Shown piece by piece: positions 2,465 through 30,171 of a stretch of DNA of 64,000 nucleotides. The stretch covers positions 1,810-65,809 of the forward strand of contig CAVKYO010000006.1 in the NCBI GenBank assembly GCA_963660495.1, given 5' to 3'. A model generated the notes under the pieces. It searched no databases, was not told the DNA's origin, and was given only the letters and a program-made list of their open reading frames with translations. Position 1 is the first letter of the stretch, and the number at the start of each line of letters is the position of its first letter. The position numbers were made by a program, and so were the translations under genes. The DNA is from Acidaminococcus fermentans. GTDB lineage: Bacteria; Bacillota_I; Bacilli_A; RF39; UBA660.

Positions 2465-3226
2465 TCAACTACATATTACTTCATTTTTTCTTAAACTTAA
2501 CTCATCAGTTTTATCAATATTTTCTCTCAAGGCATTTAAATATTTTTCTAAATAATAATCTTTGTTTTTAGAGTTATATTGCATTATAAATCTTGGATGT
2601 TCTAATGGAATTATTCTATCAAAAAAATTAAACTCCTCATTTATTTTACATAAAAATTTGTAATTTTCACCAGAACCAATACAATAACATATTGACCTAT
2701 CTATATTAAATTCCATTTGCATCTTTAGTGTTTCTACAATAAAATCATATAAACTCATCATTAACTTCTTATTTTCATAATAATTGCAATTTACCTCATT
2801 ATCTTTTGAATTAACTCTTACAATTCCCAATGGACAAACAAAGTTCATATAAAAATCATTATAAAATTTTTTACATCCACCATAACTTTCTATAACATCA
2901 TATAAAAAATTAGATGAAGCCTTATTAACATAAAAGTCATCAATATATATTCCAGTTTCTTTTTGTAAATGTGCTGCATCTTCAAACGGAATCCCTGTTA
3001 CAGCTGTACCTCTTCTTGCTGGAGAACTTCCTAAAACAATACGTCTTTTTTTATTATCACTATAAAACTTATGATAAAAAGTTTCTACAACTTGATTAGT
3101 TTTATATTTAGAATCACTATTAAATGGATTAATTATTTTAAAACCTTCCGGTACATCTATTTTAACATTCGCCAAGTACTTATCAAATTCAATAATTTTA
3201 TCACAAACAAACTGTTTCTTATTCAT
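2465..3226 (-). CDS. Uracil-DNA-glycosylase-superfamily protein (DUF4918-like)
   Basis: Motif LGSSPARRGTAVTGIPFED resembles the UDG-superfamily GxxPxxxG...F active-site region. The start was chosen at the internal ATG at 3226, which has an AGGAG RBS 7 nt upstream. Confidence 0.45.
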   Translation of the reverse strand: MNKKQFVCDKIIEFDKYLANVKIDVPEGFKIINPFNSDSKYKTNQVVETFYHKFYSDNKKRRIVLGSSPARRGTAVTGIPFEDAAHLQKETGIYIDDFYVNKASSNFLYDVIESYGGCKKFYNDFYMNFVCPLGIVRVNSKDNEVNCNYYENKKLMMSLYDFIVETLKMQMEFNIDRSICYCIGSGENYKFLCKINEEFNFFDRIIPLEHPRFIMQYNSKNKDYYLEKYLNALRENIDKTDELSLRKNEVICS

Positions 3227-3621
3227 CACGTCACTCCTACTTTTTACTTTGCACATTAATAAACAATTCAACAATATTACTTTTAAATATTTTCTTAAAG
3301 ATAGACCAAGAAACTTCTTTTTCTGTTAAGCCTTCATAATTACTATTTACCATTTTTATTATTTCATCTTAGTAATTAAATAACACTCATTAATTCTATT
3401 TTTCCATTCATATTCTACCCTCAACTCTTCAATATCCAATTCCAATATAACACATTATTTTACTATTAAAAACAAATTTTATTACACTAATTGATATTTT
3501 TATTTTATTCCATCCAAACATTACCTAAACTTTTTGTCTACATCATACATTTTTCATGTAAAGAACTACAAAATTATACATAAATAATCAACTTAATGAT
3601 ATTATATTATTAGGTGAGAAT

Positions 3622-4518
3622 ATGAAAAGAAAGAAAAAGTTAAAAACAAAAAACTTCCTAATATTTATCATCATAATAATACTAATAATAACTAGTATAA
3701 TTTATGGAATAAATAAAAGTAAAAATAATAACACAAGTTCAAAGGAGAAAAACAAAATAGAAAATAAAGATAAAGTAGATAATACAAAAGAACTAACTGA
3801 ATTAGAAAAAGCAAAAAAAGATTTAGATTATTATATAGATGAATATGAAAATGACTACAAAGAATATCGCGAAAAAAACCAAGACCTATCAATAGAAAAA
3901 GTAATAACAAACGTAAACATCGGTCTAAATTATGACTATTATACACATACTAAAGCTACAAAAGATCTAAATACAAATACTATTCTAGTAAACAAATATA
4001 ATTATTTAACAGAAGATTATGTACCAGAAAATCTTCAAACAGTTGATAAAAAATATTCTTCTAAAACATTACAACTAGTAGACTATGCTAAAGAAGCTTT
4101 TGAAGAATTATCAGAAGCTGCCTCAAAAGAAAATTACACAGTTCTAGCTATGTCAAGTTATAGAAGTTATCAATATCAATATAATTTATATAATAGATAT
4201 GTTAGTACTGATGGAGTTGAAGCAGCCGATACCTATTCAGCAAGACCTGGATACTCAGAACATCAAACCGGTCTAGCCGTAGATGTATATAATGGTAAAG
4301 AAGACTTTACAAATTTTGAAAAAACAAAAGAATACAATTGGATGCAAGATAATGCTTATAAATTTGGTTTCATCTTAAGATTTCCTAAAGATAAAGTATT
4401 AGAAACTGGCTATCAATATGAATCTTGGCATTATAGATATGTAGGTAAAGAAATAGCTAAATACATTCATGATAACAACTTATGTTTTGAAGAGTACTAT
4501 GCAACTCATCTAAATTAA
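3622..4518 (+). CDS. VanY-type D-alanyl-D-alanine carboxypeptidase (peptidase M15B), membrane-anchored
   Basis: N-terminal TM segment, then the motifs SSYRSYQYQ, SEHQTGLAVD and ESWHYRYVG characteristic of VanY/M15B carboxypeptidases. Confidence 0.8.
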   Translation: MKRKKKLKTKNFLIFIIIIILIITSIIYGINKSKNNNTSSKEKNKIENKDKVDNTKELTELEKAKKDLDYYIDEYENDYKEYREKNQDLSIEKVITNVNIGLNYDYYTHTKATKDLNTNTILVNKYNYLTEDYVPENLQTVDKKYSSKTLQLVDYAKEAFEELSEAASKENYTVLAMSSYRSYQYQYNLYNRYVSTDGVEAADTYSARPGYSEHQTGLAVDVYNGKEDFTNFEKTKEYNWMQDNAYKFGFILRFPKDKVLETGYQYESWHYRYVGKEIAKYIHDNNLCFEEYYATHLN

Positions 4519-4530
4519 ATAAACTTAAAA

Positions 4531-4570
4531 GTGTAGTGAATCAAATCGCTACACTTCTTTTTGTTTTTGA
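4531..4570. terminator. Bidirectional rho-independent terminator between the convergent VanY-like and HD-domain genes
   Basis: Hairpin AGTGTAGTGA-atcaaa-TCGCTACACT followed by TTTTTGTTTTTG. It overlaps the 3' end of the minus-strand gene. Confidence 0.5.
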
Positions 4571-5082
4571 ACTTCATTTTCTAACATAGAATAAATTTTT
4601 TCATTATCAATATATTGTTTAGACATTTCTAAAAACACATCATATTTTTTAAACAAATTATTTTTAACATCAACATCAGCAACTAAATTAACATATTTAA
4701 TATTATCCAATAAATCAGCACATTTAACAATCAAAGCCTTATTCCCAAACTTGATACAATTTAAAAACATCTTTCTAGCCTGCACTAACTTATCACTTAT
4801 TTTAGAATCAAAAGTTACTGCCAAAACACATCTAGCAATCTCCTCATCAAATGAATCACAAATATCTTCATAAGTAATATCAGTATCTTCTAATAAATCA
4901 TGTAATATTCCTGAAATAACAATATCCTTAGAATAATCAAGTTCATAAAGTATTGTACCAACTTTAAAACTGTGAAATAACACAGGTTTAAAATTATGAC
5001 CGGATTCATCTAAACTTTTAGAAACAAAATGTAAAGCTATATCCATTTCTTTTTCCAAATTAACATCCTTCAAACTAAACAA
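4549..5082 (-). CDS. HD-domain (p)ppGpp-hydrolase-like protein (small alarmone hydrolase / RelA-SpoT HD domain only)
   Basis: HSFKVG...ILHDLLEDT matches the RelA/SpoT hydrolase HD signature (H...HD...DxxED). At 177 aa it has no synthetase domain. Confidence 0.6.
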   Translation of the reverse strand: MFSLKDVNLEKEMDIALHFVSKSLDESGHNFKPVLFHSFKVGTILYELDYSKDIVISGILHDLLEDTDITYEDICDSFDEEIARCVLAVTFDSKISDKLVQARKMFLNCIKFGNKALIVKCADLLDNIKYVNLVADVDVKNNLFKKYDVFLEMSKQYIDNEKIYSMLENEVQKQKEV

Positions 5083-5121
5083 ATTAAAACCTCCAACAAA
5101 ATAAGAGATACAAAATATCTC

Positions 5122-5712
5122 TTACTCTAAAATTTCTACTTTTTCATCATACTTATTCTTAAAATAATTATATAGCTTATAAAACAAAATAACTATTATC
5201 CAAATAACAAAAACTAAATTACTTATCTGTACAATTGAAAGAACAAGATTATTACTATATAAAGAAACCTTATCAGCTAAATCCAACTTGTACTCATCAA
5301 TAGCAGCAATAAAGTTAAAGAATAAAAAGTATATTATTGAAAAAAAGCTAATATCTAAAACTCTCTTATAATATGGCATCTTACTAAAATTAGATATCAA
5401 AATAAATACTAATGATAAAACAACAATCAAAAAATACACTACAGTAGATGGAAAATAAATATATTTCATTATAGCCTTAAGTAAATAATCAATTGAATAA
5501 GTAGCATAGTCAAAATTCATAACTACAATTACTGTCATAAAAACAATAAACCCAATAACAAAAGACCATAGAACAATTTTATTATTTCTTTTAATATTCA
5601 ATACTAAAAATAAAAATAGTAGAAGTATAATCAAAAATATTTCTATTCCCATAAAAGAAGAAAAAGCATTTTTAATAACTAATCCTATCTTTTCTATTAG
5701 AGATAAAAACAA
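5122..5712 (-). CDS. Hypothetical polytopic membrane protein
   Basis: 196 aa with at least 5 hydrophobic helices. No recognisable motif. Confidence 0.35.
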   Translation of the reverse strand: MFLSLIEKIGLVIKNAFSSFMGIEIFLIILLLFLFLVLNIKRNNKIVLWSFVIGFIVFMTVIVVMNFDYATYSIDYLLKAIMKYIYFPSTVVYFLIVVLSLVFILISNFSKMPYYKRVLDISFFSIIYFLFFNFIAAIDEYKLDLADKVSLYSNNLVLSIVQISNLVFVIWIIVILFYKLYNYFKNKYDEKVEILE

Positions 5713-6405: not shown

Positions 6406-7618
6406 TTGCATAGATAATACCAATACCAGATAATAGAACTATTAATCCAATAAAGTAAACAGTTTGAGCAGTAGATAAACCAGTATCAGGAACATTTGGA
6501 GTATAATTTAAAGGAATCTCTAAATCAGTTTGAACATTATTTGTAACCGTTTGAACAGCCGCTACGGTTTGATATTGTCCTGCAGTATCAAGATAATAGT
6601 TACCTTCAAGTGTTGTAAATGAACCAGTTACACCAATTTCAATCTTTTTATTATTTTCATTTACCTTATTAACAGGAACTCTTACATAAAATTTATCAGT
6701 ACTAGCCATATTAGAAAGTTGATTATCACTTATCTTATTACCGTTTTCATCTACTATAAATGATCCTTCTGGAGCAGATTTTAATTCAACCGAGTAACCA
6801 TTAAAGTTAGCTGAAGGTGTTGCAGTAACAGATATTTGTGAAGTTTGATAATATTTATCATCAGAAGTTAAAGAAATATTATTAGTTGCGGTATTAATCT
6901 TTAAAAATTTATTAGGAGTACCTTTATTAGCAATAGCTTCTTCTACTAAGTTTTTAACATATTTATCATAGAATGTAGAATCAGACTCACTAGGAAGACC
7001 TACACTACCATCAACTTTATAATAAACATTTTCATTTGCTCCTAGAATTAATGCTTTAGCATTCATTAAATTTTCCTGATCACCATCCGCAAACTTATAA
7101 TTTCCAATAACTGACTCAGGAGTTACTCTTGAATCATTTAAATACATCCAAATAGAAACTTGCGAAACCCAAGTCTTAACAGCGCTTTTTAAATTCTCAT
7201 CAGTATACACAGCAAAAGTTTCATCAAATTCATCACTAGATAATTTAGCAAGTAAATATAATAATCCATAATCTTCTATGGCTGCATCCTTCATATATGT
7301 TTTTCCACCAGCAAAATCTTTATTAGCTTGCATACAGAACAATTGAAGACTACCATACTCAGCAGTAGTTCTAAAAGGATTAACTGGATGAGCAGTAGGA
7401 TACGTATTAATTGTTTCATTACCATCAACATCAGCAGTAGTAAATGTATCTGGCAACTTATTAGTCACCTCAGGAATAGCATAAGAAGTTTGATTCAAAC
7501 CTACTATTACAATAGCAACAACTGCAATAATTGCTAAAGCAAATGTACCAACTATAGACTTAGATTGTAAAAAGTTTTTATTATTTTGTTTATTATTTTC
7601 AATATAAATTTTTTCCAT
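6380..7618 (-). CDS. Sortase-substrate cell-wall surface protein (pilin/adhesin-like) with a VPDTG sorting signal
   Basis: N-terminal signal/TM. The C-terminus is NVPDTG + 24 hydrophobic residues + a KPSESK tail, i.e. a tripartite cell-wall sorting signal. It lies immediately upstream of the sortase. Confidence 0.6.
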   Translation of the reverse strand: MEKIYIENNKQNNKNFLQSKSIVGTFALAIIAVVAIVIVGLNQTSYAIPEVTNKLPDTFTTADVDGNETINTYPTAHPVNPFRTTAEYGSLQLFCMQANKDFAGGKTYMKDAAIEDYGLLYLLAKLSSDEFDETFAVYTDENLKSAVKTWVSQVSIWMYLNDSRVTPESVIGNYKFADGDQENLMNAKALILGANENVYYKVDGSVGLPSESDSTFYDKYVKNLVEEAIANKGTPNKFLKINTATNNISLTSDDKYYQTSQISVTATPSANFNGYSVELKSAPEGSFIVDENGNKISDNQLSNMASTDKFYVRVPVNKVNENNKKIEIGVTGSFTTLEGNYYLDTAGQYQTVAAVQTVTNNVQTDLEIPLNYTPNVPDTGLSTAQTVYFIGLIVLLSGIGIIYANVKPSESK

Positions 7619-19535: not shown

Positions 19536-20932
19536 CTAAAATTTCTTTCTTTATTTTCATAAATAACTTCATACTTATCTGAATACTTTAAATAAGTATT
19601 AATAGGATAATTAGTAGAAACCAAGAAATAATCGAAACTATATTTTTCAATCAATTTAGGATAATCACCATTTAACTTAGAAATATCTAAATAATCTTTA
19701 AAATTATATTTAGAATATAAGTCTGCCCTACCATCTATAAATACTAAAATATCATTGTAAATAAGAACACCACCATAATCATACATATTATATAAACGTT
19801 CTGGCTTTTCTTCTTTTAAAACATTAATTACTTCATCATCTAAAAAGTAATCATCCGTTTCATAGTTTCGATAAAGATTACCAATAGAAAATAACACAAG
19901 TAAAATTGATATAAATCCAATGCTTAAATTTGTACCAGCATCTATTTTTCTTTTACCAATATAATTAAAGATAACAAAACTCATAATTATATATGTATAT
20001 GGCCAAAACCTAATACTCTTAAGTCCTAAAAACAAGGATATTCCAAATAAAACAAAATCCATTAACTCTATCTTCTTCTTACTGAAAATGAATACAAATA
20101 ATATCAAAACTGCCAAAATAAAATATGGATAATTACTTATATTATTAAGCGTAGTCGGTCTCCATTCAGCAATATTAGAAATCATTAAACTATCCAGTAT
20201 ATTTTGATATGGATATAAAAACATCTTAAAACCATGAATATTTATACATACAGCAAACATTGGCAATATACCAATAAATAAATATTTAAATAACTGTTTT
20301 TTACTAATTCTATTAGCTTCAATCTTTGAAAACTTAAATGAAAATAAACCTATTATCAAAAAGATAAAACAAAATAAATACCCTAAATTACTAGAACCAC
20401 CATGAACATTAGACCAAAGAACAGATAGTACTGGTAAAAAATATATTTTTCTAGAATCTTCATTCTTATATAAATCATATAAAAACCAGATAGTTAAAGC
20501 TAAGAAAATATAGCTAACTAAATGAGGTCTAATTTGTACATAAAAGACTAAAATAAAACCGAAAATAATCCAAACTAAACTAAACACAACATTTTTCAAA
20601 AACTTATCTTTATTATATACAAACAAAATTAATTCTAAAATACCAATACAAATAAAACTAAATATTACATAAAAACTCTTACCTAACAAATTACTCAAAT
20701 TATAAATAATTATTTCAAATAACCATTCATGTGACATCCAACTTTTCCCATACATATACCAAGAAAATACATCAGTATTTAAAATACCGTGTTTCATCAT
20801 ATATTCTCCAGCTTTTATATGCCATAAAAAATCAGTATCAATTTTAACACAACTAGCTAAAGCTAAAGTAAAAGCAAAAACTAAAATTCCAAATAAAATA
20901 ATAGTAAAATTTTTCTTAACAATCCTTTTCAT
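19508..20932 (-). CDS. Large polytopic membrane protein (GT-C-like glycosyltransferase fold suspected)
   Basis: 474 aa with more than 10 TM helices. The N-terminal loop carries FLWHIKAGEYM...SHEWLFEI. The assignment is weak. Confidence 0.35.
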   Translation of the reverse strand: MKRIVKKNFTIILFGILVFAFTLALASCVKIDTDFLWHIKAGEYMMKHGILNTDVFSWYMYGKSWMSHEWLFEIIIYNLSNLLGKSFYVIFSFICIGILELILFVYNKDKFLKNVVFSLVWIIFGFILVFYVQIRPHLVSYIFLALTIWFLYDLYKNEDSRKIYFLPVLSVLWSNVHGGSSNLGYLFCFIFLIIGLFSFKFSKIEANRISKKQLFKYLFIGILPMFAVCINIHGFKMFLYPYQNILDSLMISNIAEWRPTTLNNISNYPYFILAVLILFVFIFSKKKIELMDFVLFGISLFLGLKSIRFWPYTYIIMSFVIFNYIGKRKIDAGTNLSIGFISILLVLFSIGNLYRNYETDDYFLDDEVINVLKEEKPERLYNMYDYGGVLIYNDILVFIDGRADLYSKYNFKDYLDISKLNGDYPKLIEKYSFDYFLVSTNYPINTYLKYSDKYEVIYENKERNFRLYKEKSAN

Positions 20933-21668
20933 AACTAAGTCCTTTTTGATATAATTTTTCTTTAATTTTATATTCTAATTCCTTACCAGAATATTTTTTA
21001 TTTAATCTTTTATACAATTTTTCATACTCCCTCTTCGCAATATCAGAGGTATCATTAAAATTATAACTATCTATTACTTTAGAAATAACTTCATAAGAAT
21101 AACCCGACATAACTAAATCATTTACAATTTTATTTTTTAAAACATTTCCCCCTTTATTTCTATTACTCTTAATAGCCATCCTAATAATCTTATTAATTTT
21201 CTCAATTTGTATATTCTCTTCAAAAACACCTATCTCATTTGAAATAATACTCATATCAATTCCTTTACTAGATAAATCTTTAATTATCTTATTAGGTCCT
21301 TTAGAAGAAGTAATTATTTGATTATTAATATATGCCCTCGCAAAACTACGATCATTTAAATATCCTTGCTTTTCTAATTTTTCTATAGCTATATCAACAA
21401 AAGAACTAGGATAATCCTTAGAAAGTAACATTTTTCTTAATTCCCAAGAACTCTTAAATCTAGACTTAAGCGACTTTAAAGCGGTATAATAAACATCACA
21501 CTCATTATTATAAGCCTCTATTTCCGGAAAAATATCATTCGTAATATCTTTCTTTAACAATAATTCATACTTTAAAATTACATCTTCATACAATTTTAAT
21601 TCTCGATTATCATCTAAAGTAACTAAATATTTACCAGAACTTATTTTTTTATATTTTAAAATTTTCAT
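20916..21668 (-). CDS. recX: Recombination regulator RecX
   Basis: Three-repeat helical architecture. RSFARAYINNQ and LSKKGY-like segments match the RecX family. Confidence 0.65.
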   Translation of the reverse strand: MKILKYKKISSGKYLVTLDDNRELKLYEDVILKYELLLKKDITNDIFPEIEAYNNECDVYYTALKSLKSRFKSSWELRKMLLSKDYPSSFVDIAIEKLEKQGYLNDRSFARAYINNQIITSSKGPNKIIKDLSSKGIDMSIISNEIGVFEENIQIEKINKIIRMAIKSNRNKGGNVLKNKIVNDLVMSGYSYEVISKVIDSYNFNDTSDIAKREYEKLYKRLNKKYSGKELEYKIKEKLYQKGLSYEKDC

Positions 21669-21786
21669 GTATACCTCCTATCAACATCATTAATCATATA
21701 TTGCACATCAAGTACTTGTCTTACTATAATAAAATACAAACGTGTGTTTGTCAATAGATAAAAATGTATTTAAAAAAAGAAAGATA

Positions 21787-21993
21787 CTATTCACTCTTTC
21801 TTTTTACTTCAATCAATCCCTCAGAAACCTCTTCAAGAGCTCTTCCTATATTTTTGACACATTTATAATTTTTTTCAGGTAATTGTAAATATCCGTCTTT
21901 AGAAATTTGTTTACTTCTTCTTGCTGCTATATGAACAAGCTCATATTTAGAGTCAACTATATTAAGTAGTTTATCAATAGATGGATAAATCAT
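21787..21993 (-). CDS. rpoZ: DNA-directed RNA polymerase omega subunit
   Basis: MIYPSIDKLLNIVDSKYELVHIAARRSKQI matches the Firmicute RpoZ N-terminus. The ATG at 21993 has a GGGAG RBS, and the longer upstream extension of the ORF is spurious. Confidence 0.7.
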   Translation of the reverse strand: MIYPSIDKLLNIVDSKYELVHIAARRSKQISKDGYLQLPEKNYKCVKNIGRALEEVSEGLIEVKRKSE

Positions 21994-22091
21994 GTGTATC
22001 ACACTCCCTACTATTAGCATAACCAAAAGACATAAATTAATCAAGGAAAGCGACATAATTAGACACTTTTCTTGACAAAACATTTTACTTA

Positions 22092-23021
22092 TTATTTTAC
22101 ATCAAACATACCCAATATTGCCTCAGTATAAATATCCTTAGCTATGCCATAACCATTATCCTTCAAAGACATTAAATGTTTCATCATTACTCCAGAATTA
22201 ACTTCCATAACTAAATATTCATTTTCAATAGTCTTAATAATATCAATACTACAAAATCCTATATCAATACTATCAGTAATTTTAGAAACTATATCAAGTA
22301 TATTCTTTTTATCTAATTTATCTATATCAAAAGAAGCTACAGAACCAAGAGATAAATTAAATTTCCAATCATAGCAAAACTTCTCATCTCTCTTTAAAAT
22401 AACATTTAAAGAGTTATCATCAATATTCTTAAAGTACTCATAATTAAGCTTTAATAACAATTCCCTAATAGTAGAATACCCATCACCCAATACTTCAGGC
22501 AATATTTTCTTATAAATAACTTTAACTTTATTATTTAAAACAATAACTCGAAACTCATTACTAATATTATAAAAAGGACATATACTAAAAGAAGCATCAC
22601 TAAAAAAAGTATTATTATAAAACTTTTCCAATTCTATGAACTCTTTAAAATGACTAACTTCATTTCCACAGGTACCAGTATTTTTCTTTACAACAACATC
22701 CCCCATATACTCATCAAATTTTTCTTTCAAATATTCCAAACTATTATACTTTCCAACATGACTATTAGTATTATTTTTACAATAAAATATACTATATTCA
22801 CACACTGGCACATTAAAATACTTTAACAATTCATATGTAGCATATTTATCATCAAATACCTTACCTAAAGAATAACTATTATTATCAAACTTATAGCCAG
22901 AGATAGTTTTAACTACCCTATTCTTTTCTAAAACAAGTAAATAACCCAAAGATAAAACCTGGCACTCTATATTATTTTCTAAACATATAAGTTGAATTAA
23001 TTTTATAAAATTTCTATCCAT
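22092..23021 (-). CDS. ATP-grasp family ligase (possibly YheC/YheD-like spore-coat-associated)
   Basis: VKKNTGTCGNEV and the downstream E/N-rich catalytic region fit the ATP-grasp fold. It is next to other coat-like genes. Confidence 0.45.
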   Translation of the reverse strand: MDRNFIKLIQLICLENNIECQVLSLGYLLVLEKNRVVKTISGYKFDNNSYSLGKVFDDKYATYELLKYFNVPVCEYSIFYCKNNTNSHVGKYNSLEYLKEKFDEYMGDVVVKKNTGTCGNEVSHFKEFIELEKFYNNTFFSDASFSICPFYNISNEFRVIVLNNKVKVIYKKILPEVLGDGYSTIRELLLKLNYEYFKNIDDNSLNVILKRDEKFCYDWKFNLSLGSVASFDIDKLDKKNILDIVSKITDSIDIGFCSIDIIKTIENEYLVMEVNSGVMMKHLMSLKDNGYGIAKDIYTEAILGMFDVK

Positions 23022-23069
23022 GTAATCTAATCAACTCCATCCTGTACAAATATCAACTTAAATAAATAA

Positions 23070-23339
23070 CTAAATAGTATAAAATTCCTCTAAAATGTCC
23101 ATATTGTAACTAGCTTTTTTTAAAAACTTACCATTATACTTAACATCAAGCTTATAGTACTTATTAACAAATTCATCATAATCAAAAACAAACAAATCTA
23201 AATAATTTTCAACAATATCATCAACAAAATCACAACCAGACTTTCTCAAAAACAATACAATTCTAGAAAAATTTTCTATATTAAGTTTATTAACAATACT
23301 TTTATCATATTTATTAATAATATCATTAATGTCTTGCAT
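23070..23339 (-). CDS. Hypothetical small acidic protein
   Basis: 89 aa. An AAGGAG lies 12 nt upstream. No motif recognised. Confidence 0.3.
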   Translation of the reverse strand: MQDINDIINKYDKSIVNKLNIENFSRIVLFLRKSGCDFVDDIVENYLDLFVFDYDEFVNKYYKLDVKYNGKFLKKASYNMDILEEFYTI

Positions 23340-24678
23340 AAAAAGAATCGACTCCTTTCATAGTTTTAACATCTATACCATAATCTTCTCTTAATCTTTT
23401 ACTAGTAGCACTTAAAATAGGATTTAATCGATGCCTATGATCACCAGAAGTATTCATAACTGTTAATGAATAATTATTATTTTTTAAATATTCCAAAAGT
23501 TTTCCTAAATAAATAGAACCTTTTCTTAAACAACCATTAGTAGCATACTCATCAATACCATATTTACTTAACAATGTCATACCAGCAGTAATATTATCCA
23601 GTGATAAAGAAAAAATACTAGGTTTCAATAATCCATCATATTTATGAGAATTCCAATATGGCAATGATAATATATCTTTCACAGCTTTATAACTACTATT
23701 CCAAATACTTGGTGTTAATAAATGACTAAATCTTTCATCATCCCATTCACTCATAGATAAAATATTCTTTATTTCCAAAGCATTACTTTTCCATAAACTA
23801 GAAGTTAGAAGATGGCTGAATTTCTCATTATTCCATTCTTCCATACGTAATGTATCAATAATATTACCGATATTACTATTCCAAATATTAGAAGTAAGTA
23901 AATTACTAAATCTTGGATTATCCCAGTCTTTTAAATTTAAAACGCCTTTAACTGTTTCAAAATTACTTTGCCAAATCGTAGGAGTAAGTAAATTACTAAA
24001 TCTTTCATCATCCCACTCCCTTAAACTTAAAATTTTATCTATCATCGAAGGATCTGAACAGCTCCAAATATTACTAGTAAGAAGCCTCTCAAACTTTGGA
24101 TCATCCCAATAATTAGAAGATAATACTTTTTTTACGACTTCTATATTACTATTCCAAATATTAGGAGTAAGTAAATTACTAAATCTTGGATTATCCCATT
24201 CTGATAATTCTAAAACACTCTGTACCATTTCAGGCGTACTATTCCATATAGTTGAAGTAAGTAATGAACTAAATTTTGGATCTCTTAATTCTGAAATATC
24301 TAAAATTCTTGAAACTTTATCACTAGTACTAGCCCAAATTGACGAAGTAAATACCTTATCAAATCTTGAATCATACCATTCCGGTCTTTTCAAAATATTC
24401 TTAATATTGTCTAAGTCAGCCTTCCAAATTGAAGAAGACAAAGCTCTACAAAATCTCTCATCAGTCCAAGCCGGTAACTGTAAAACGCCTTTTATTGTAT
24501 CTAAATCACAATACCAAATATTACTAGTAAGAAGTCCCTTAAATTTTGGATTATCCCATTCTTCCATCTCTAAAACAGTTTTTACAAATTCATAATCCCT
24601 ATTATACATATATTCTGTAGCAAGTACTCTTCTCCCAGCTAATAACTCATCTACTAATTTTCTCTCAATACTATTCAT
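23326..24678 (-). CDS. Tandem-repeat protein: ~11 copies of a ~36-aa repeat with core [KR]F-S-x-LLT-[SP]-x-IW-N-S ... L-x-L-x-EWD-[DN]-[PE], plus a unique C-terminal domain
   Basis: The repeats are obvious in the translation (RFSNLLTPNIWNSNIEVVKKVLSSNYWDDPKF and similar). The DNA also shows ~105-bp periodic repeats (ttggattatcccattc recurs). The start was chosen at MNSIERK, where an AGAGGGA RBS is present. Confidence 0.6.
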   Translation of the reverse strand: MNSIERKLVDELLAGRRVLATEYMYNRDYEFVKTVLEMEEWDNPKFKGLLTSNIWYCDLDTIKGVLQLPAWTDERFCRALSSSIWKADLDNIKNILKRPEWYDSRFDKVFTSSIWASTSDKVSRILDISELRDPKFSSLLTSTIWNSTPEMVQSVLELSEWDNPRFSNLLTPNIWNSNIEVVKKVLSSNYWDDPKFERLLTSNIWSCSDPSMIDKILSLREWDDERFSNLLTPTIWQSNFETVKGVLNLKDWDNPRFSNLLTSNIWNSNIGNIIDTLRMEEWNNEKFSHLLTSSLWKSNALEIKNILSMSEWDDERFSHLLTPSIWNSSYKAVKDILSLPYWNSHKYDGLLKPSIFSLSLDNITAGMTLLSKYGIDEYATNGCLRKGSIYLGKLLEYLKNNNYSLTVMNTSGDHRHRLNPILSATSKRLREDYGIDVKTMKGVDSFYARH

Positions 24679-24743
24679 TAAAAAGTCCCTCTCTAAAAAA
24701 ATTATATCATAAAAAGAAAAAAAGAGACAAAAGTCTCTCATAA

Positions 24744-25085
24744 TTATCTAAATTTACAACAAGAACCTGCTTGAACATTACTTACAGTGTTTTCCTCAGA
24801 GCAAGAATAAGCTGGTCTATAAGTATGTTTATATATATGATGATTTATAATTCTTGTATGTATTGGACAAACATGTGGTACTTCATGTACTATAGTTCTA
24901 TGAATACATTTTTCTTGAACTGCCTCATTTATCGGATTAGAATAACCGTCATTAGAAGCATACGGCATATTTTGATAACCAGACATATTAATATCAACAT
25001 TCATATCATTATCAACTACATTATTATTACCAACAACATTACTATCAAAATCGAAATTTGGCATATTCATATTTTGATCAAACAT
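24744..25085 (-). CDS. cotD: CotD-family inner spore coat protein
   Basis: The His/Pro/Thr-rich block HRTIVHEVPHVCPIHTRIINHHIYKHTYRP matches the CotD family signature. A GGAGG RBS is present. Confidence 0.5.
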   Translation of the reverse strand: MFDQNMNMPNFDFDSNVVGNNNVVDNDMNVDINMSGYQNMPYASNDGYSNPINEAVQEKCIHRTIVHEVPHVCPIHTRIINHHIYKHTYRPAYSCSEENTVSNVQAGSCCKFR

Positions 25086-25147
25086 AATAAAATACCTCCT
25101 CTAATCTATAATATGATAAAAGGAGTATTTAGCTACTAATAAAACAT

Positions 25148-26455
25148 TTAAAATGGCAACTTCATATTACCATTAGACATCTGTTTCATCATTTTTTTCA
25201 TTTGATCAAACTGTTGAAGTAATCTATTAACTTCTTGTACAGAAGTACCAGATCCTGAAGCAATTCTTGTTTTACGACTTGCCTTAATTATATCTGGATT
25301 TCTTCTTTCTTTAGGAGTCATAGATAAAACAATTGCTTCAATATGAGCCATTTGTTTTGGATCTATTTTTATATCATTAAGTCCCATCTTCTTAGCACCA
25401 GGAATTAATTTCAACAAATTTTCCAATGGTCCTAATTTTTTAATTTGTTTCATAGTAGATAAAAAGTCTTCCAAGTCAAACTTACCTTGTTGCATTCTTT
25501 TAGCTGTCTTTTCTGCTTCTTTTTCATCAATAGCTTCTGTTGCCTTTTCAACTAAAGAAACTATATCACCCATACCAAGAATTCTACCAGCAGCTCTTTC
25601 TGGATCAAAGAAATCAAGACCATCTAATTTTTCAGAAACACCAATAAACTTAATTGGAACATTAGTTAAATGTCTAACAGATAAAGCAACTCCACCTTTA
25701 GTATCACCATCTAATTTAGTAAGAACTACTCCAGATAAAGGTAAAGTATCATTAAAACCAGTAATAACATTAATAGCGTCCTGCCCCATCATAGAATCAA
25801 TTACTAAAAGTATTTCATCAGGTTTAACTGTATCTTTGATTCTAACGAGTTCATCCATTAATTCTTCATCAATATGTAATCTACCTGCAGTATCAATTAA
25901 TACATAATCATACCCATTTTCTTTAGCGTACTTAAAAGCATTACTAGCTATCTCAACAGGATCTTGTTTACCCTCTTCATAAACTTCAATATTCAATTGT
26001 TTACCAAGCTGCTTTAATTGATCTATTGCGGCTGGTCTATAAACATCACAAGCTACTAGTAAAGGTTTTTTAGAATGCTTCTTACGCAAAAAATTAGCTA
26101 ACTTAGCAATTGTCGTAGTTTTACCAGAACCTTGTAAACCAACAAGCATCAAACTAGCTGGATTGCCATTTAAATTTAAAGATTTACTTTCACCACCTAA
26201 TAATTCAACTAATTCATCTTTTACAATTTTAACAAATAAGTCACCAGGATTAATGCTACTAGCAACCTCTTCTCCTAATGCTTTTTCTTTAACAGAATTT
26301 GTAAACTCTTTAACAACCTTATAATTAACATCAGCTTCAAGTAAAGCTAATCTAATCTCTCTCATCATATCAGAAATATTATCTTCTGTTATTTTCCCAT
26401 AACCTTTTACCTTGTGTAAAACGTTTTGTAATCTATCTCCTAAACTTTCAAACAT
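25148..26455 (-). CDS. ffh: Signal recognition particle protein Ffh
   Basis: MFESLGDRLQNV start, SRP54 GTPase motifs GLQGSGKTTT and DTAGR, and a Met-rich M domain. Confidence 0.9.
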   Translation of the reverse strand: MFESLGDRLQNVLHKVKGYGKITEDNISDMMREIRLALLEADVNYKVVKEFTNSVKEKALGEEVASSINPGDLFVKIVKDELVELLGGESKSLNLNGNPASLMLVGLQGSGKTTTIAKLANFLRKKHSKKPLLVACDVYRPAAIDQLKQLGKQLNIEVYEEGKQDPVEIASNAFKYAKENGYDYVLIDTAGRLHIDEELMDELVRIKDTVKPDEILLVIDSMMGQDAINVITGFNDTLPLSGVVLTKLDGDTKGGVALSVRHLTNVPIKFIGVSEKLDGLDFFDPERAAGRILGMGDIVSLVEKATEAIDEKEAEKTAKRMQQGKFDLEDFLSTMKQIKKLGPLENLLKLIPGAKKMGLNDIKIDPKQMAHIEAIVLSMTPKERRNPDIIKASRKTRIASGSGTSVQEVNRLLQQFDQMKKMMKQMSNGNMKLPF

Positions 26456-27630: not shown

Positions 27631-30171
27631 TTATTCAACAATATTAATTAATGGGACACCTCTATCAGTAGTAGGCACCATTGATGAATTATTATTAGTC
27701 ATATTCATATTTGTATTTTGAACAAATCCATTATTAGCTGGTCCAATCTGACTAAAACTATCATTCATATTTGAATTATTTCCAAGTCCAAAGCTACTAC
27801 CTAAATTATTATCAGTACTATCCTCAGTTGGAGGTACAATTCTTACAGTACCATAATCATTAACACGTTCCTCTAATTTAACAGTAGGACTAACTGTACT
27901 ATTATTAGAAACCATATCCAATGTACTAGGTACACTCAAAAATTGATTAGGATCAAAATTAGATTCATTATTATTTTGCTGATTAACCGCTGAAAAATCA
28001 GGCAAAGCTGACTGAACCATACTATTATCAAGCGTATATCCAGCAATAGTAGGAACTGCACTATTATTACTATTATCAATCATATTATCAGTCATATTAC
28101 TACTAGAAGTATTTAAATTCATCATATTATTTTGATTAAAATTACTATTTTCCTGATTCATACTTGGCTGCTCAACACTTGTTTCATTAGAAACACTAGG
28201 AACAGCCAAAGAATTATTACTTTGCTCTGTTGTCATAGAATTCTGTTCTAAAAATGGATTAACCGGTACATTATTACTTACAAATTGCATAGGTTGTGGA
28301 TTCATAGAAATCTCTTTAACTTCACTAACCGTATTATTAACAGGAGCACTTGTATTAATTGAAGCAGTACCATTACCATTCCAAATAGTAACAACATCAC
28401 AGTTACCAGACCAGGGTGCCGGATTTGGCATTTCCATTTTAACAATTAAAGGAATTCTAAAAGCCATACCAAAACCTAAACAAGTACCAGCTTGTAAAGT
28501 CTTTTGCTTTTCAACTATTTCATCACTAATATTTGGAACCATTTTTCTAATATAGTCAACATCAACAGGATGGTTCATTTTAAATATTAAGAAATTAGAA
28601 CATTGTGAAATAACAGTATCAGAAAGTTCCACCGGTCTTTGCGATATAAGTCCTAAAATAACAGCGTATTTTCTACCTTCCTTAGCAATTCTTTCGAATA
28701 TATTATATCCAATTAAGAATCTATCTGTATCATTTTGAATATATCTGTGAGCCTCTTCAACAACAATATGAAAAGGTATACTTGCTCTTTCTTTTAATCC
28801 TTTAGCAAACTCAAAAATTAATCTAGAGTAAATTTTTGTAATAACTTTAGCAAAATCATCATCAACGTCGTCTAAATTGATATTAACAATTTGATATTTA
28901 TTACCATTATTAATTAACATAGAAGACAAGAATGTCTCTAAAGAAACAAAATCAGGATAATCAAAGAACTTAGAATTAGGTCCTACTATTAAAGCATGTA
29001 ATCTTACTTTTATAGTAACCGCATCACCATAAGTATTCTCATTACGTAACCAACCTTCACTAATCAAAGTAAAATTAAGAGCTTTCTCCAAAGTATCTAA
29101 TGAATAATAAACACCCTTCTGTGGCTCATAATTGTCATAATCATTCTTAATAAATGAAGAAACATACTCTGTAAGTAAAACACTTTCAGAAAATTGTCCC
29201 TGACTATCAATTAAGAAACATTCCCTAAACTTTCTAGTATAGCCAACACCTTGTACAACAGCTTCTAAATTAAATTCTGGTGTAGAACAACTAGCCAAAA
29301 TTGAAAATATTTCATTTCTCTTGTTAGGAGATGTTTCATTAGTATATAAAATTGTCATAATAGCCTTAGCGATTAAATGGTTCTTATAATTATTGGCATC
29401 CATATCAGTTTGTGAAAAAACTAAAGCTAATTTTAACATTCTTTCAATAATTGGTAATTGTGAATGACTAGTAGCTTGTAATAACAAAGCTAAGTCACTT
29501 TCATTAAGTAAAAATACTGGTATTCTAAGTTTCTCGCCTTTACCATCAACCTCATTAGTACTATAAAAACGATAATGATAATTAGAGTTAATACTATTGA
29601 TATCTTTAAATGCGTTATAGTACTCACCAGATGAATCAAATAAAACTATATTTGCTTTGTACGGAAATAACCTCTGATCATGAAACATGTTCTGAAATAA
29701 TCTTGAAATACCGCAACTCTTACCTGAACCAGAATTACCAAATATAGCAAAATGATTACTAAAGAAATTATTAACATCTAAGAAGACAGGATAGTCATTG
29801 TAAAAAGGACTAACTCCAAGACGTAGATATCCTTGAGCATCAGTACCACAGATCATGGGAATTTCATTTTGTTCAATAACACGAATCTTAGCATCTAAAG
29901 ATGGTTTACGTATAACACCACCTAATAATTTACCATTAACAATTTCACCTAAAAATCTAACTCTAACAAGATTTCCATCTAAGTCATCTACCTCACCAAG
30001 TATTTTTTTCATATTATCCTCAAAAATAATATGTAAATTCATTAGATTCATAGTTACGTTATAACCATCAGCCAACTTAACATTAGCAGAATGATCACTA
30101 ATATAAACAATTCGTTCAAACATATTAGTCAACTCCCATCTTATTCCTTTTACCCTATATAAATTATACAA
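27631..30171 (-). CDS. HerA/DUF87-family (FtsK-HerA superfamily) ATPase with a ~250-aa C-terminal N/S/Q/M-rich low-complexity tail
   Basis: Walker A FGNSGSGKS. HerA-type Walker B HIVVEEAHRY, the DEAH-like variant. The LISQRPVELSDTVISQCSNFLIFKMN motif is typical of HerA/DUF87. The N-terminal region is HAS-barrel-like. The last ~250 aa have almost no charged residues and are rich in N/S/Q/M. Confidence 0.7.
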   Translation of the reverse strand: MYNLYRVKGIRWELTNMFERIVYISDHSANVKLADGYNVTMNLMNLHIIFEDNMKKILGEVDDLDGNLVRVRFLGEIVNGKLLGGVIRKPSLDAKIRVIEQNEIPMICGTDAQGYLRLGVSPFYNDYPVFLDVNNFFSNHFAIFGNSGSGKSCGISRLFQNMFHDQRLFPYKANIVLFDSSGEYYNAFKDINSINSNYHYRFYSTNEVDGKGEKLRIPVFLLNESDLALLLQATSHSQLPIIERMLKLALVFSQTDMDANNYKNHLIAKAIMTILYTNETSPNKRNEIFSILASCSTPEFNLEAVVQGVGYTRKFRECFLIDSQGQFSESVLLTEYVSSFIKNDYDNYEPQKGVYYSLDTLEKALNFTLISEGWLRNENTYGDAVTIKVRLHALIVGPNSKFFDYPDFVSLETFLSSMLINNGNKYQIVNINLDDVDDDFAKVITKIYSRLIFEFAKGLKERASIPFHIVVEEAHRYIQNDTDRFLIGYNIFERIAKEGRKYAVILGLISQRPVELSDTVISQCSNFLIFKMNHPVDVDYIRKMVPNISDEIVEKQKTLQAGTCLGFGMAFRIPLIVKMEMPNPAPWSGNCDVVTIWNGNGTASINTSAPVNNTVSEVKEISMNPQPMQFVSNNVPVNPFLEQNSMTTEQSNNSLAVPSVSNETSVEQPSMNQENSNFNQNNMMNLNTSSSNMTDNMIDNSNNSAVPTIAGYTLDNSMVQSALPDFSAVNQQNNNESNFDPNQFLSVPSTLDMVSNNSTVSPTVKLEERVNDYGTVRIVPPTEDSTDNNLGSSFGLGNNSNMNDSFSQIGPANNGFVQNTNMNMTNNNSSMVPTTDRGVPLINIVE

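Follow-up and report, generated by a model that had tools for sequence, protein, structure and literature searches.

Proteins of the mTERF type were long regarded as eukaryotic and organellar. Their prokaryotic counterparts, the pTERFs, have been described as mTERF-like tandem-repeat proteins of 3-11 units (Hu et al., Nucleic Acids Res 2024, PMC11417379). According to the pTERF section of that paper, they come from metagenome-assembled genomes (MAGs), mostly of Bacillota, and tens of homologues are reported, with very low identity to eukaryotic mTERFs and with mTERF-like units in AlphaFold2 (AF2) predictions. pTERF1 (MBQ3414883.1; identifier TR_35_C32_2, meaning a 35-residue period) originates from a ruminant-gut MAG and binds the double-stranded DNA (dsDNA) motif ACTNNNAGTC with a dissociation constant of 1.87 nM, and pTERF2 binds another motif; the same section presents these proteins as having nanomolar DNA affinity and as possibly reprogrammable (PMC11417379). 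Here we describe a tandem-repeat gene in a 64,000-nucleotide stretch of contig CAVKYO010000006.1 (assembly GCA_963660495.1, deposited as Acidaminococcus fermentans), the whole of which is referred to below as the window. The gene lies at 23326..24678 on the minus strand and encodes 450 residues plus a stop codon. We put at about even the chance that its product is a pTERF-like, mTERF-related solenoid in which unit-specific residues of a short helix would recognize a specific target in nucleic acid, probably dsDNA.

The pTERFs are the closest published kind of protein, the two groups being set side by side by description only, as given in the pTERF section. They share strictly tandem helical repeats, a unit number within the pTERF range (11 here), and an origin in MAGs that are mostly from Bacillota. 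Both groups are small, with 262 clusters here and tens of pTERF homologues reported, and the arrangement-dependent DNA motifs of the pTERFs fit the repeat-specific residues observed here. Furthermore, one assembly that holds relatives of the window gene, XIEF21-1, appears to come from the same ruminant data set as pTERF1. A point of difference is that mTERF motifs are annotated inside the pTERF repeats, whereas the Pfam mTERF model misses the repeats of the window protein. The pTERF section of PMC11417379 does not mention a partner gene, HNH fusions or strain-level copy-number variation, and the main text contains nothing relevant on operon or gene-neighbour context. Relative to that portion of the paper, the present family adds a small partner gene linked in every locus, HNH nucleases fused to some members in nature, one defined position of hypervariability per unit, and repeat gain and loss at strain level.

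Eukaryotic mTERFs (PF02536; MTERF1, 3MVA; MTERF3, 3M66) resemble the family in having helical motifs of ~30 residues stacked into a superhelix, and they provide the best, though weak, structural matches to the AF2 model of a homologue, P0007. Their motifs are interspersed and mutually dissimilar, whereas those described here follow one another in strict tandem and, in many members, hardly differ in sequence. The family further differs by carrying two Trp residues per unit and an extra C-terminal domain of helices and a beta-hairpin, by its obligatory small partner gene, and by being bacterial and presumably cytoplasmic.

Repeat array, family and predicted fold

The preliminary description had reported a gene with a regular tandem repeat at 23326-24678, and this was borne out by the open reading frame (ORF), the start at 24678 and the self-identity of the protein at a lag of 30 residues. 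The period, which had been read as ~36 residues or ~105 bp, is in fact 30 residues or 90 bp. Tandem Repeats Finder returned a repeat period of 90 bp, DNA self-identity peaked at lags of 90, 180 and 270 (0.50 at lag 90 versus a background of 0.32), and protein self-identity reached 0.31 at lag 30, compared with a maximum of 0.12 in 1000 shuffles; this periodicity greatly exceeds what chance would give. In the DNA itself the repetition is modest, with units averaging 56% identity and a longest exact direct repeat of 33 nt. The 16-mer ttggattatcccattc, said to recur every ~105 bp, occurs just twice, 360 bp apart.

The protein consists of three parts, all encoded on the minus strand. An N-terminal cap (24547..24678; residues 1-44) comprises a helix and a half-repeat ending in EMEEWDNP; in the family alignment it is conserved with the consensus MxxxExxxIxxLLKGRxxL..., and in the P0007 model its helices span residues 4-11, 21-25 and 28-35. 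Ten canonical units follow (23644..24546; residues 45-345), each of 30 residues except for one of 31, with the Trp-rich consensus [KR]FxxLLT[SP]xIWxSxxxx[VI]kxiLxxxEWxDP and two Trp per unit. The third part (23329..23643; residues 346-450) contains a degenerate eleventh unit (KYDGLLKPSIF...) and a conserved C-terminal domain. The earlier count of ~11 units thus stands as ten canonical units plus one degenerate one, the N-terminal half-unit being additional. Among the positions that had been called invariant, F2 and W11 are so across the canonical units, and LLT and the second Trp are only nearly invariant. The C-terminal domain, previously estimated at ~100 residues, is a non-repeat region of ~105 residues which is conserved across the family alignment, and in the P0007 model it folds into helices and a beta-hairpin with strands at 224-227 and 231-234. 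Foldseek matches of this domain to DtxR/IdeR had probabilities of <=0.08, and a winged-helix identity is not claimed for it.

No match to the repeat protein was found in Pfam, NCBIfam, PADLOC or PHROG, and the family profile (A1) gave only noise against PDB sequences. The Pfam models for TPR, PPR, Sel1, PUF and HEAT repeats did not match the protein, in agreement with the initial judgement that it is not of the TPR, PPR or Sel1 type, nor did they match the scanned relatives, apart from a spurious PPR_3 match in P0008 (E 0.018). A word-indexed search identified 32 relatives, mostly of ~265-270 residues, with 4-5 units and the same cap and C-terminal domain. An exhaustive HMMER search identified 262 proteins at E <=1e-3 among 1.84 billion cluster representatives, many of them fragments; the named relatives are from MAGs of Bacilli and Clostridia. 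This is a small Bacillota family, nearly all of whose known members come from metagenomes and MAGs (several of them from the gut), and its unit period differs by sub-family (~29-31, 34 and 38 residues). An array at L012:3066-5020 of the XIEF21-1 assembly (apparently ruminant gut) has at least 17 units of 30 residues and a scaffold gap of Ns inside it; such arrays break assemblies, and many of the family matches are therefore fragmentary. Two relatives, P0161 (704 residues) and P0185 (402 residues), seemingly contain 2-4 complete modules of cap, repeats and C-terminal domain in one polypeptide.

Structure prediction was performed on P0007, which is 45% identical to the window protein, using a 20-sequence alignment. 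The AF2 model (mean predicted local distance difference test score, pLDDT, 93.4; predicted template modelling (TM) score 0.83) is an all-alpha repeat in which each unit consists of one 8-residue helix and three short helices. One short helix spans unit positions 8-12, and the loop preceding the long helix is made up of positions 13-14. Judged by this model, the repeat protein folds as an all-alpha solenoid, as had been proposed from the sequence, and its family is represented in neither Pfam nor NCBIfam. In a Foldseek search of the PDB with the P0007 model, human MTERF3 ranked first (E 0.86, TM-score 0.39), followed by MTERF1-DNA complexes and TAL effectors with TM-scores of up to 0.47. The viral structures of BFVD gave no Foldseek match to the repeat model.

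mTERF and HNH links, variable positions and copy number

Long members of the family possess an additional N-terminal domain of ~165 residues. A profile built from 13 such domains found human MTERF3 (3M66) as its best PDB match (E 2.5e-4 among 177,635 sequences), and the Pfam mTERF model (PF02536) matched the N-terminal regions of P0199 (E 3e-4, 20.2 bits) and P0218 (E 2.7e-3, 17.1 bits) below its cut-off of 23.1 bits. Moreover, P0199 (648 residues) and P0283 (478 residues) begin with HNH endonuclease domains that score above the Pfam thresholds and that are followed by a linker of the mTERF-like N-domain type, then an array of repeats and finally the C-terminal domain of the family. The terminal repeat and the C-terminal domain are common to these two proteins and the window protein, with P0199 matching profile positions 31-258; the window protein itself has no nuclease domain. 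The presence of mTERF-like and HNH nuclease domains in relatives therefore points to nucleic-acid binding, and we position the family close to mTERF-like proteins that bind nucleic acids, by a sequence link that runs through relatives and is marginal.

Several observations weigh against a pTERF-like DNA binder. The repeat protein is slightly acidic (isoelectric point (pI) 5.7, net charge -6; homologues pI 5.7 to 9.3), unlike typical basic DNA binders. It lacks the N-terminal mTERF-like domain of its long relatives. The Pfam mTERF model does not match it even with the E limit raised to 1, and a scan of eight relatives with a limit of 10 gave no match either. Aligning the Trp-type repeat family with the N-terminal mTERF-like domain by hhalign revealed no link (probability 7%). 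Every PDB fold match of the P0007 model is non-significant, with a best E of 0.86 and TM-scores of 0.39-0.47. Finally, the 35-residue period of pTERF1, compared by its published description only, differs from the 30 residues seen here (~29-38 in relatives). In the mTERF motif signature, position 8 is Pro and positions 11, 18 and 25 are hydrophobic (Roberti et al., as quoted in the pTERF section of PMC11417379). In an arbitrary register starting at the K/R residue, the window units have Pro at position 8 in three of ten units, Trp at 11 in all ten and I/V/M at 18 in all ten, and position 25 is not hydrophobic.

The pattern of variation within arrays suggests which residues might be used for recognition. 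Across six near-identical arrays, position 12, which follows the invariant Trp, was the most variable in four and ranked second or third in the other two, followed in variability by positions 13, 9 and 15. The clearest case is the ten-unit array of locus L014 (units 88% identical in nucleotide sequence), where position 12 reached 2.65 bits and the next, position 13, 1.3 bits. In the window protein, positions 9, 12, 13 and 14 vary among units (1.2-2.3 bits), and between 83%-identical orthologues these four positions show 0, 1, 0 and 0 changes in ten units, with position 28 changed in 7 of the 10. Residues at positions 9, 12, 13 and 14 are thus unit-specific yet kept in orthologues, the pattern expected if individual units recognize parts of a fixed target.

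The anatomy of the gene, its family, the conserved gene pair, the HNH fusions, the marginal mTERF link of relatives and the pattern of variable sites are observed; that the protein binds DNA, which positions it would use for recognition and what the partner does are inferred. In the mechanism that we propose, the 11 units would stack into a superhelical solenoid in the cytoplasm, and the short helix S8-x9-I-W11-x12, together with x13 and x14, would display repeat-specific side chains. These might read a defined, irregular target, most likely dsDNA, at approximately one unit per short step. The target would be fixed in the chromosome, and the protein may act as a regulator or a terminator-like factor.

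Orthologues of the window protein at 98% and 83% identity are all 450 residues long, with zero indels, and dN/dS, the ratio of non-synonymous to synonymous substitution rates, is 0.21 relative to the 83%-identical orthologue. On these sequence comparisons, the array of the window lineage is old and diverged, with a copy number fixed at 11 units and under purifying selection, which fits a fixed chromosomal target. A copy number prone to change by recombination had been suggested for this gene; such change is not seen in the window lineage and is clear in relatives whose DNA repeats are 88% identical. In particular, a partner protein of identical sequence, P0044, occurs in 109 or more blocks of the contig collection, and the arrays upstream of it differ by strain: 449 residues with 10 canonical units, 269 residues with 4, or 209 residues with 2 accompanied by a 299-residue paralogue. 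Copy number ranges from 2 to at least 17 units across strains and relatives, and since one partner sequence accompanies different arrays in different strains, recombinational copy-number change in the family is real.

Individual loci illustrate this diversity. L014:3621-4970 holds a single 449-residue copy, L015 holds copies of 299 and 209 residues (2675-3574 and 4341-4970), and L004 combines a 269-residue copy with a truncated paralogue of 143 residues (4803-5234). In the two-copy P0044 strains, a DUF2798 gene lies between the copies on the opposite strand. L017:2167-5839 encodes tandem paralogues of 604 and 514 residues, with F-type repeats and an N-terminal mTERF-like domain, ahead of a single partner gene; a helix-turn-helix regulator and a Y2 transposase gene are close to the repeat and partner genes there.

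Strain-level variation of this kind could also reflect an arms race, with the repeat protein belonging to a selfish or defence module in which its array would guide a nuclease or act as a sensor for one. HNH-fused members, arrays that differ between strains, duplicated or truncated paralogues, and the occurrence of the cassette at varied chromosomal places, for instance between xseA and xseB or beside a Y2 transposase, are in keeping with this. We nevertheless consider it very improbable for the window gene: PADLOC and PHROG searches were without match, a nuclease domain is absent from the protein, the window has no genes of mobile elements on either side of it, and its lineage is single-copy in the 64-kb window, syntenic across species, indel-free and constrained at the dN/dS given above.

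Among established modular binders, TAL effectors and TALE-like proteins (RipTAL, Bat/BurrH, MOrTL, STAR) share with the family near-identical helical repeats that are hypervariable at positions 12/13, placement of the hypervariable site at a helix end and in the loop before the next helix, recombination-prone arrays of variable copy number, and a weak structural match (TM-score 0.46). The differences are a period of 30 rather than 33-35 residues and units of four short helices, where TALE units have two; moreover, the members of the present family are not secreted effectors, and a code of one repeat per base is so far without evidence in them. The window protein shows no sequence or Pfam similarity to TALEs, and Foldseek E-values for the P0007 model were above 5. 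PUF and PPR proteins are likewise modular alpha-helical repeats with few specificity positions, and the F-type relatives (HNH-fused and N-domain members) resemble them in having a polar residue paired with an aromatic or basic one; the period and helix pattern differ, and the spurious PPR_3 match in P0008 is the sole Pfam match. In these F-type repeats the variable sites are both x positions of FTS-x-VLA-x-S (T/Q/E and F/Y/H/R, respectively). As a lead only, this pair resembles the edge-contact and stacking residues with which PUF proteins read single strands.

The latter resemblance bears on an alternative in which the protein would be an mTERF-like RNA binder, acting on rRNA, tRNA or an mRNA leader with the partner as an adaptor. 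MTERF4 and several plant mTERFs bind RNA, and the partner would be analogous to NSUN4, which binds the C-terminal end of MTERF4. The fold and mTERF evidence applies to RNA exactly as it does to DNA; a near-neutral pI suits stacking on single strands better than phosphate-driven binding of a duplex, and the neighbours of the gene pair are often translation or RNA genes (ffh, rpoZ, ileS, pheST, nusB, frr). We regard RNA binding as unlikely, while taking it seriously: the neighbourhoods are inconsistent between lineages, the HNH fusions suggest a DNA substrate, and the sole experimental data for the closest published kind, as reported in its pTERF section, concern dsDNA (PMC11417379).

If the pTERF-like reading is extended to the whole family, these proteins would be a programmable means, existing in nature, of recognizing nucleic acids, and one that differs from TALE, PUF, PPR and zinc-finger proteins, a proposition that we advance tentatively and hold to be rather doubtful. 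In such a system, the 30-residue Trp-rich unit may read a fixed step of the target via residues 9, 12 and 13 of one short helix, arrays may be rebuilt by recombination between strains, and the HNH fusions may be natural TALEN-like enzymes. The obligatory 89-residue acidic partner may gate or cap binding, and the window protein, with its old and fixed array of 11 units, may read a single site in the chromosome. Natural variants make a recognition code directly testable, and if a code exists, no helical module known to read DNA would be more compact than these units of 30 residues, which could be of use in engineering.

A partner gene conserved downstream of the array

The gene immediately downstream (23070..23339, minus strand) encodes a partner protein of 89 residues, and its first 14 nt are shared with the end of the repeat gene. 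The repeat gene was immediately followed by a gene for a homologue of 86-95 residues in each locus examined (L001-L010 and L012-L015, plus L016 and L017, which represent the HNH-fused and N-domain types); in the latter two the partner was detected by hmmsearch at E about 1e-17. The partner family comprises at least 368 relatives, and in none of the 368 was a Pfam domain found. Both families, of the repeat protein and of the partner, are without Pfam match and are defined here.

The partner is acidic (pI 4.7), and AF2 predicts an all-alpha protein of eight short helices (pLDDT 89.7). Its model had no PDB Foldseek match at E up to 10, and its profile (A4) found only noise among PDB sequences; Pfam scans and the PDB sequence and fold searches detected no DNA-binding motif in it. 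Comparison by hhalign with the N-terminal mTERF-like domain gave a weak lead only (probability 15%), and comparison with the repeat family gave nothing.

The genes surrounding the pair change from lineage to lineage, which identifies the two-gene cassette as the conserved unit. In the window, the pair lies between ffh and the CotD-like gene on one side and ATP-grasp, rpoZ and recX genes on the other, while elsewhere it is found between xseA and xseB, between DivIVA and ileS, between recA and RecX-like/scpA genes, and between U32 peptidase and SDR genes. In the window, the RecX gene is located downstream of the pair at 20916-21668; in L004, a weakly RecX-like gene of 147 codons (7157-7600; sub-threshold RecX_HTH1) is also downstream of the pair, with recA nearby too. 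The occurrence of RecX near the pair in two lineages could be coincidence.

The gene pair points to a two-component mode of action. Together with the C-terminal domain of the repeat protein, the co-translated acidic partner would form a constant module that may cap, dimerise or regulate the array. The small, invariably co-encoded partner could instead mean that the array is a protein-protein scaffold of TPR/HEAT-like type, with a protein or the partner itself as ligand and no nucleic-acid role, and the acidic to neutral character of both proteins, the lack of a significant match to any DNA-binding fold and the lack of a detectable DNA-binding motif in the partner are compatible with that. Such a scaffold appears decidedly unlikely to us. 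The identical partner P0044 accompanies arrays of 2, 4, 5 and 10 units and therefore cannot be read by the whole array; in addition, mTERF-like N-terminal domains and HNH fusions occur within the same family, and one hypervariable residue per near-identical unit is the pattern of code-type nucleic-acid binders.

Gene boundaries and flanking genes

The start of the repeat gene was assigned to the ATG at 24678, which has a ribosome-binding site 8 nt upstream (AGAGAGGGA). The same length of 450 residues is given by independent gene calls in L009 and L010, two near-identical metagenomic contigs, and this ATG is likely to be the true start. In the ORF list, the longest ORF in the same frame runs from the first ATG at 24741 to 23326 on the minus strand (471 residues). 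The longer version was rejected as an artefact, because its first 21 codons fall inside the hairpin of an upstream terminator and a promoter. No second copy of the gene was found within the 64-kb window.

The promoter-like site (24701..24730, minus strand) has the form TTGTCT-18-TATAAT with an extended -10 element carrying TG (TGATATAAT at 24709..24701); the -10 element and the TG are kept in the locus of the 83%-identical orthologue (L001), where overall nucleotide identity is 87%. The terminator-like hairpin (24722..24739, minus strand), GAGAGAC-TTTT-GTCTCTT followed by a T-run, is located directly 3' of the stop codon of the CotD-like gene. It is the sole such site in 21500-25300, compared with 0.4 in shuffled sequence, and it is retained in L001 and L010. 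In a strain with 98% identity, the DNA that precedes the terminator and promoter (L009:1-45, at the contig start) differs from the CotD-like gene, reflecting either a rearrangement or an assembly-end artefact.

The upstream neighbour, at 24744-25085 on the minus strand, is an ORF of 113 residues whose similarity to Pfam CotD is below threshold (E 0.004, 18 bits versus a cut-off of 22). Its N-terminal half is Asn-rich and of low complexity, partly owing to 18-bp tandem repeats at 24983-25045. The preliminary description had placed the repeat gene between a CotD-like coat gene and an ATP-grasp gene and had proposed a structural or scaffolding role at the spore surface. The CotD assignment remains as this weak match, and the ATP-grasp gene is not an immediate neighbour, since the partner gene intervenes. 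Apart from adjoining the CotD-like ORF, a coat role can draw on the sporulation genes that these organisms carry, such as SpoVS in L004. It is unsupported, because the terminator and a promoter of its own separate the repeat gene from the CotD-like gene and because no coat gene adjoins the pair in any other lineage examined, relatives lying instead among unrelated housekeeping genes; the links of the family to mTERF and HNH also speak against it, and we find a spore-coat function barely plausible.

On the downstream side, a RimK-like ATP-grasp ligase gene (22092-23021, minus strand) begins 48 nt past the partner gene and occupies the same place in L001 and L009. It was considered as a further member of the module and rejected, as only in the window lineage does it come after the pair. 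The rpoZ ORF beyond it (21787-22083, minus strand) spans 98 codons, compared with 68 in the L009 gene call, and the match to the omega subunit begins at about residue 31; from its sequence, the 98-residue version is probably too long. Further upstream of the repeat gene, at 27631-30171 on the minus strand, the window encodes a protein of 846 residues in which a HerA/DUF87 ATPase domain precedes a low-complexity, Asn/Ser-rich tail of ~250 residues.

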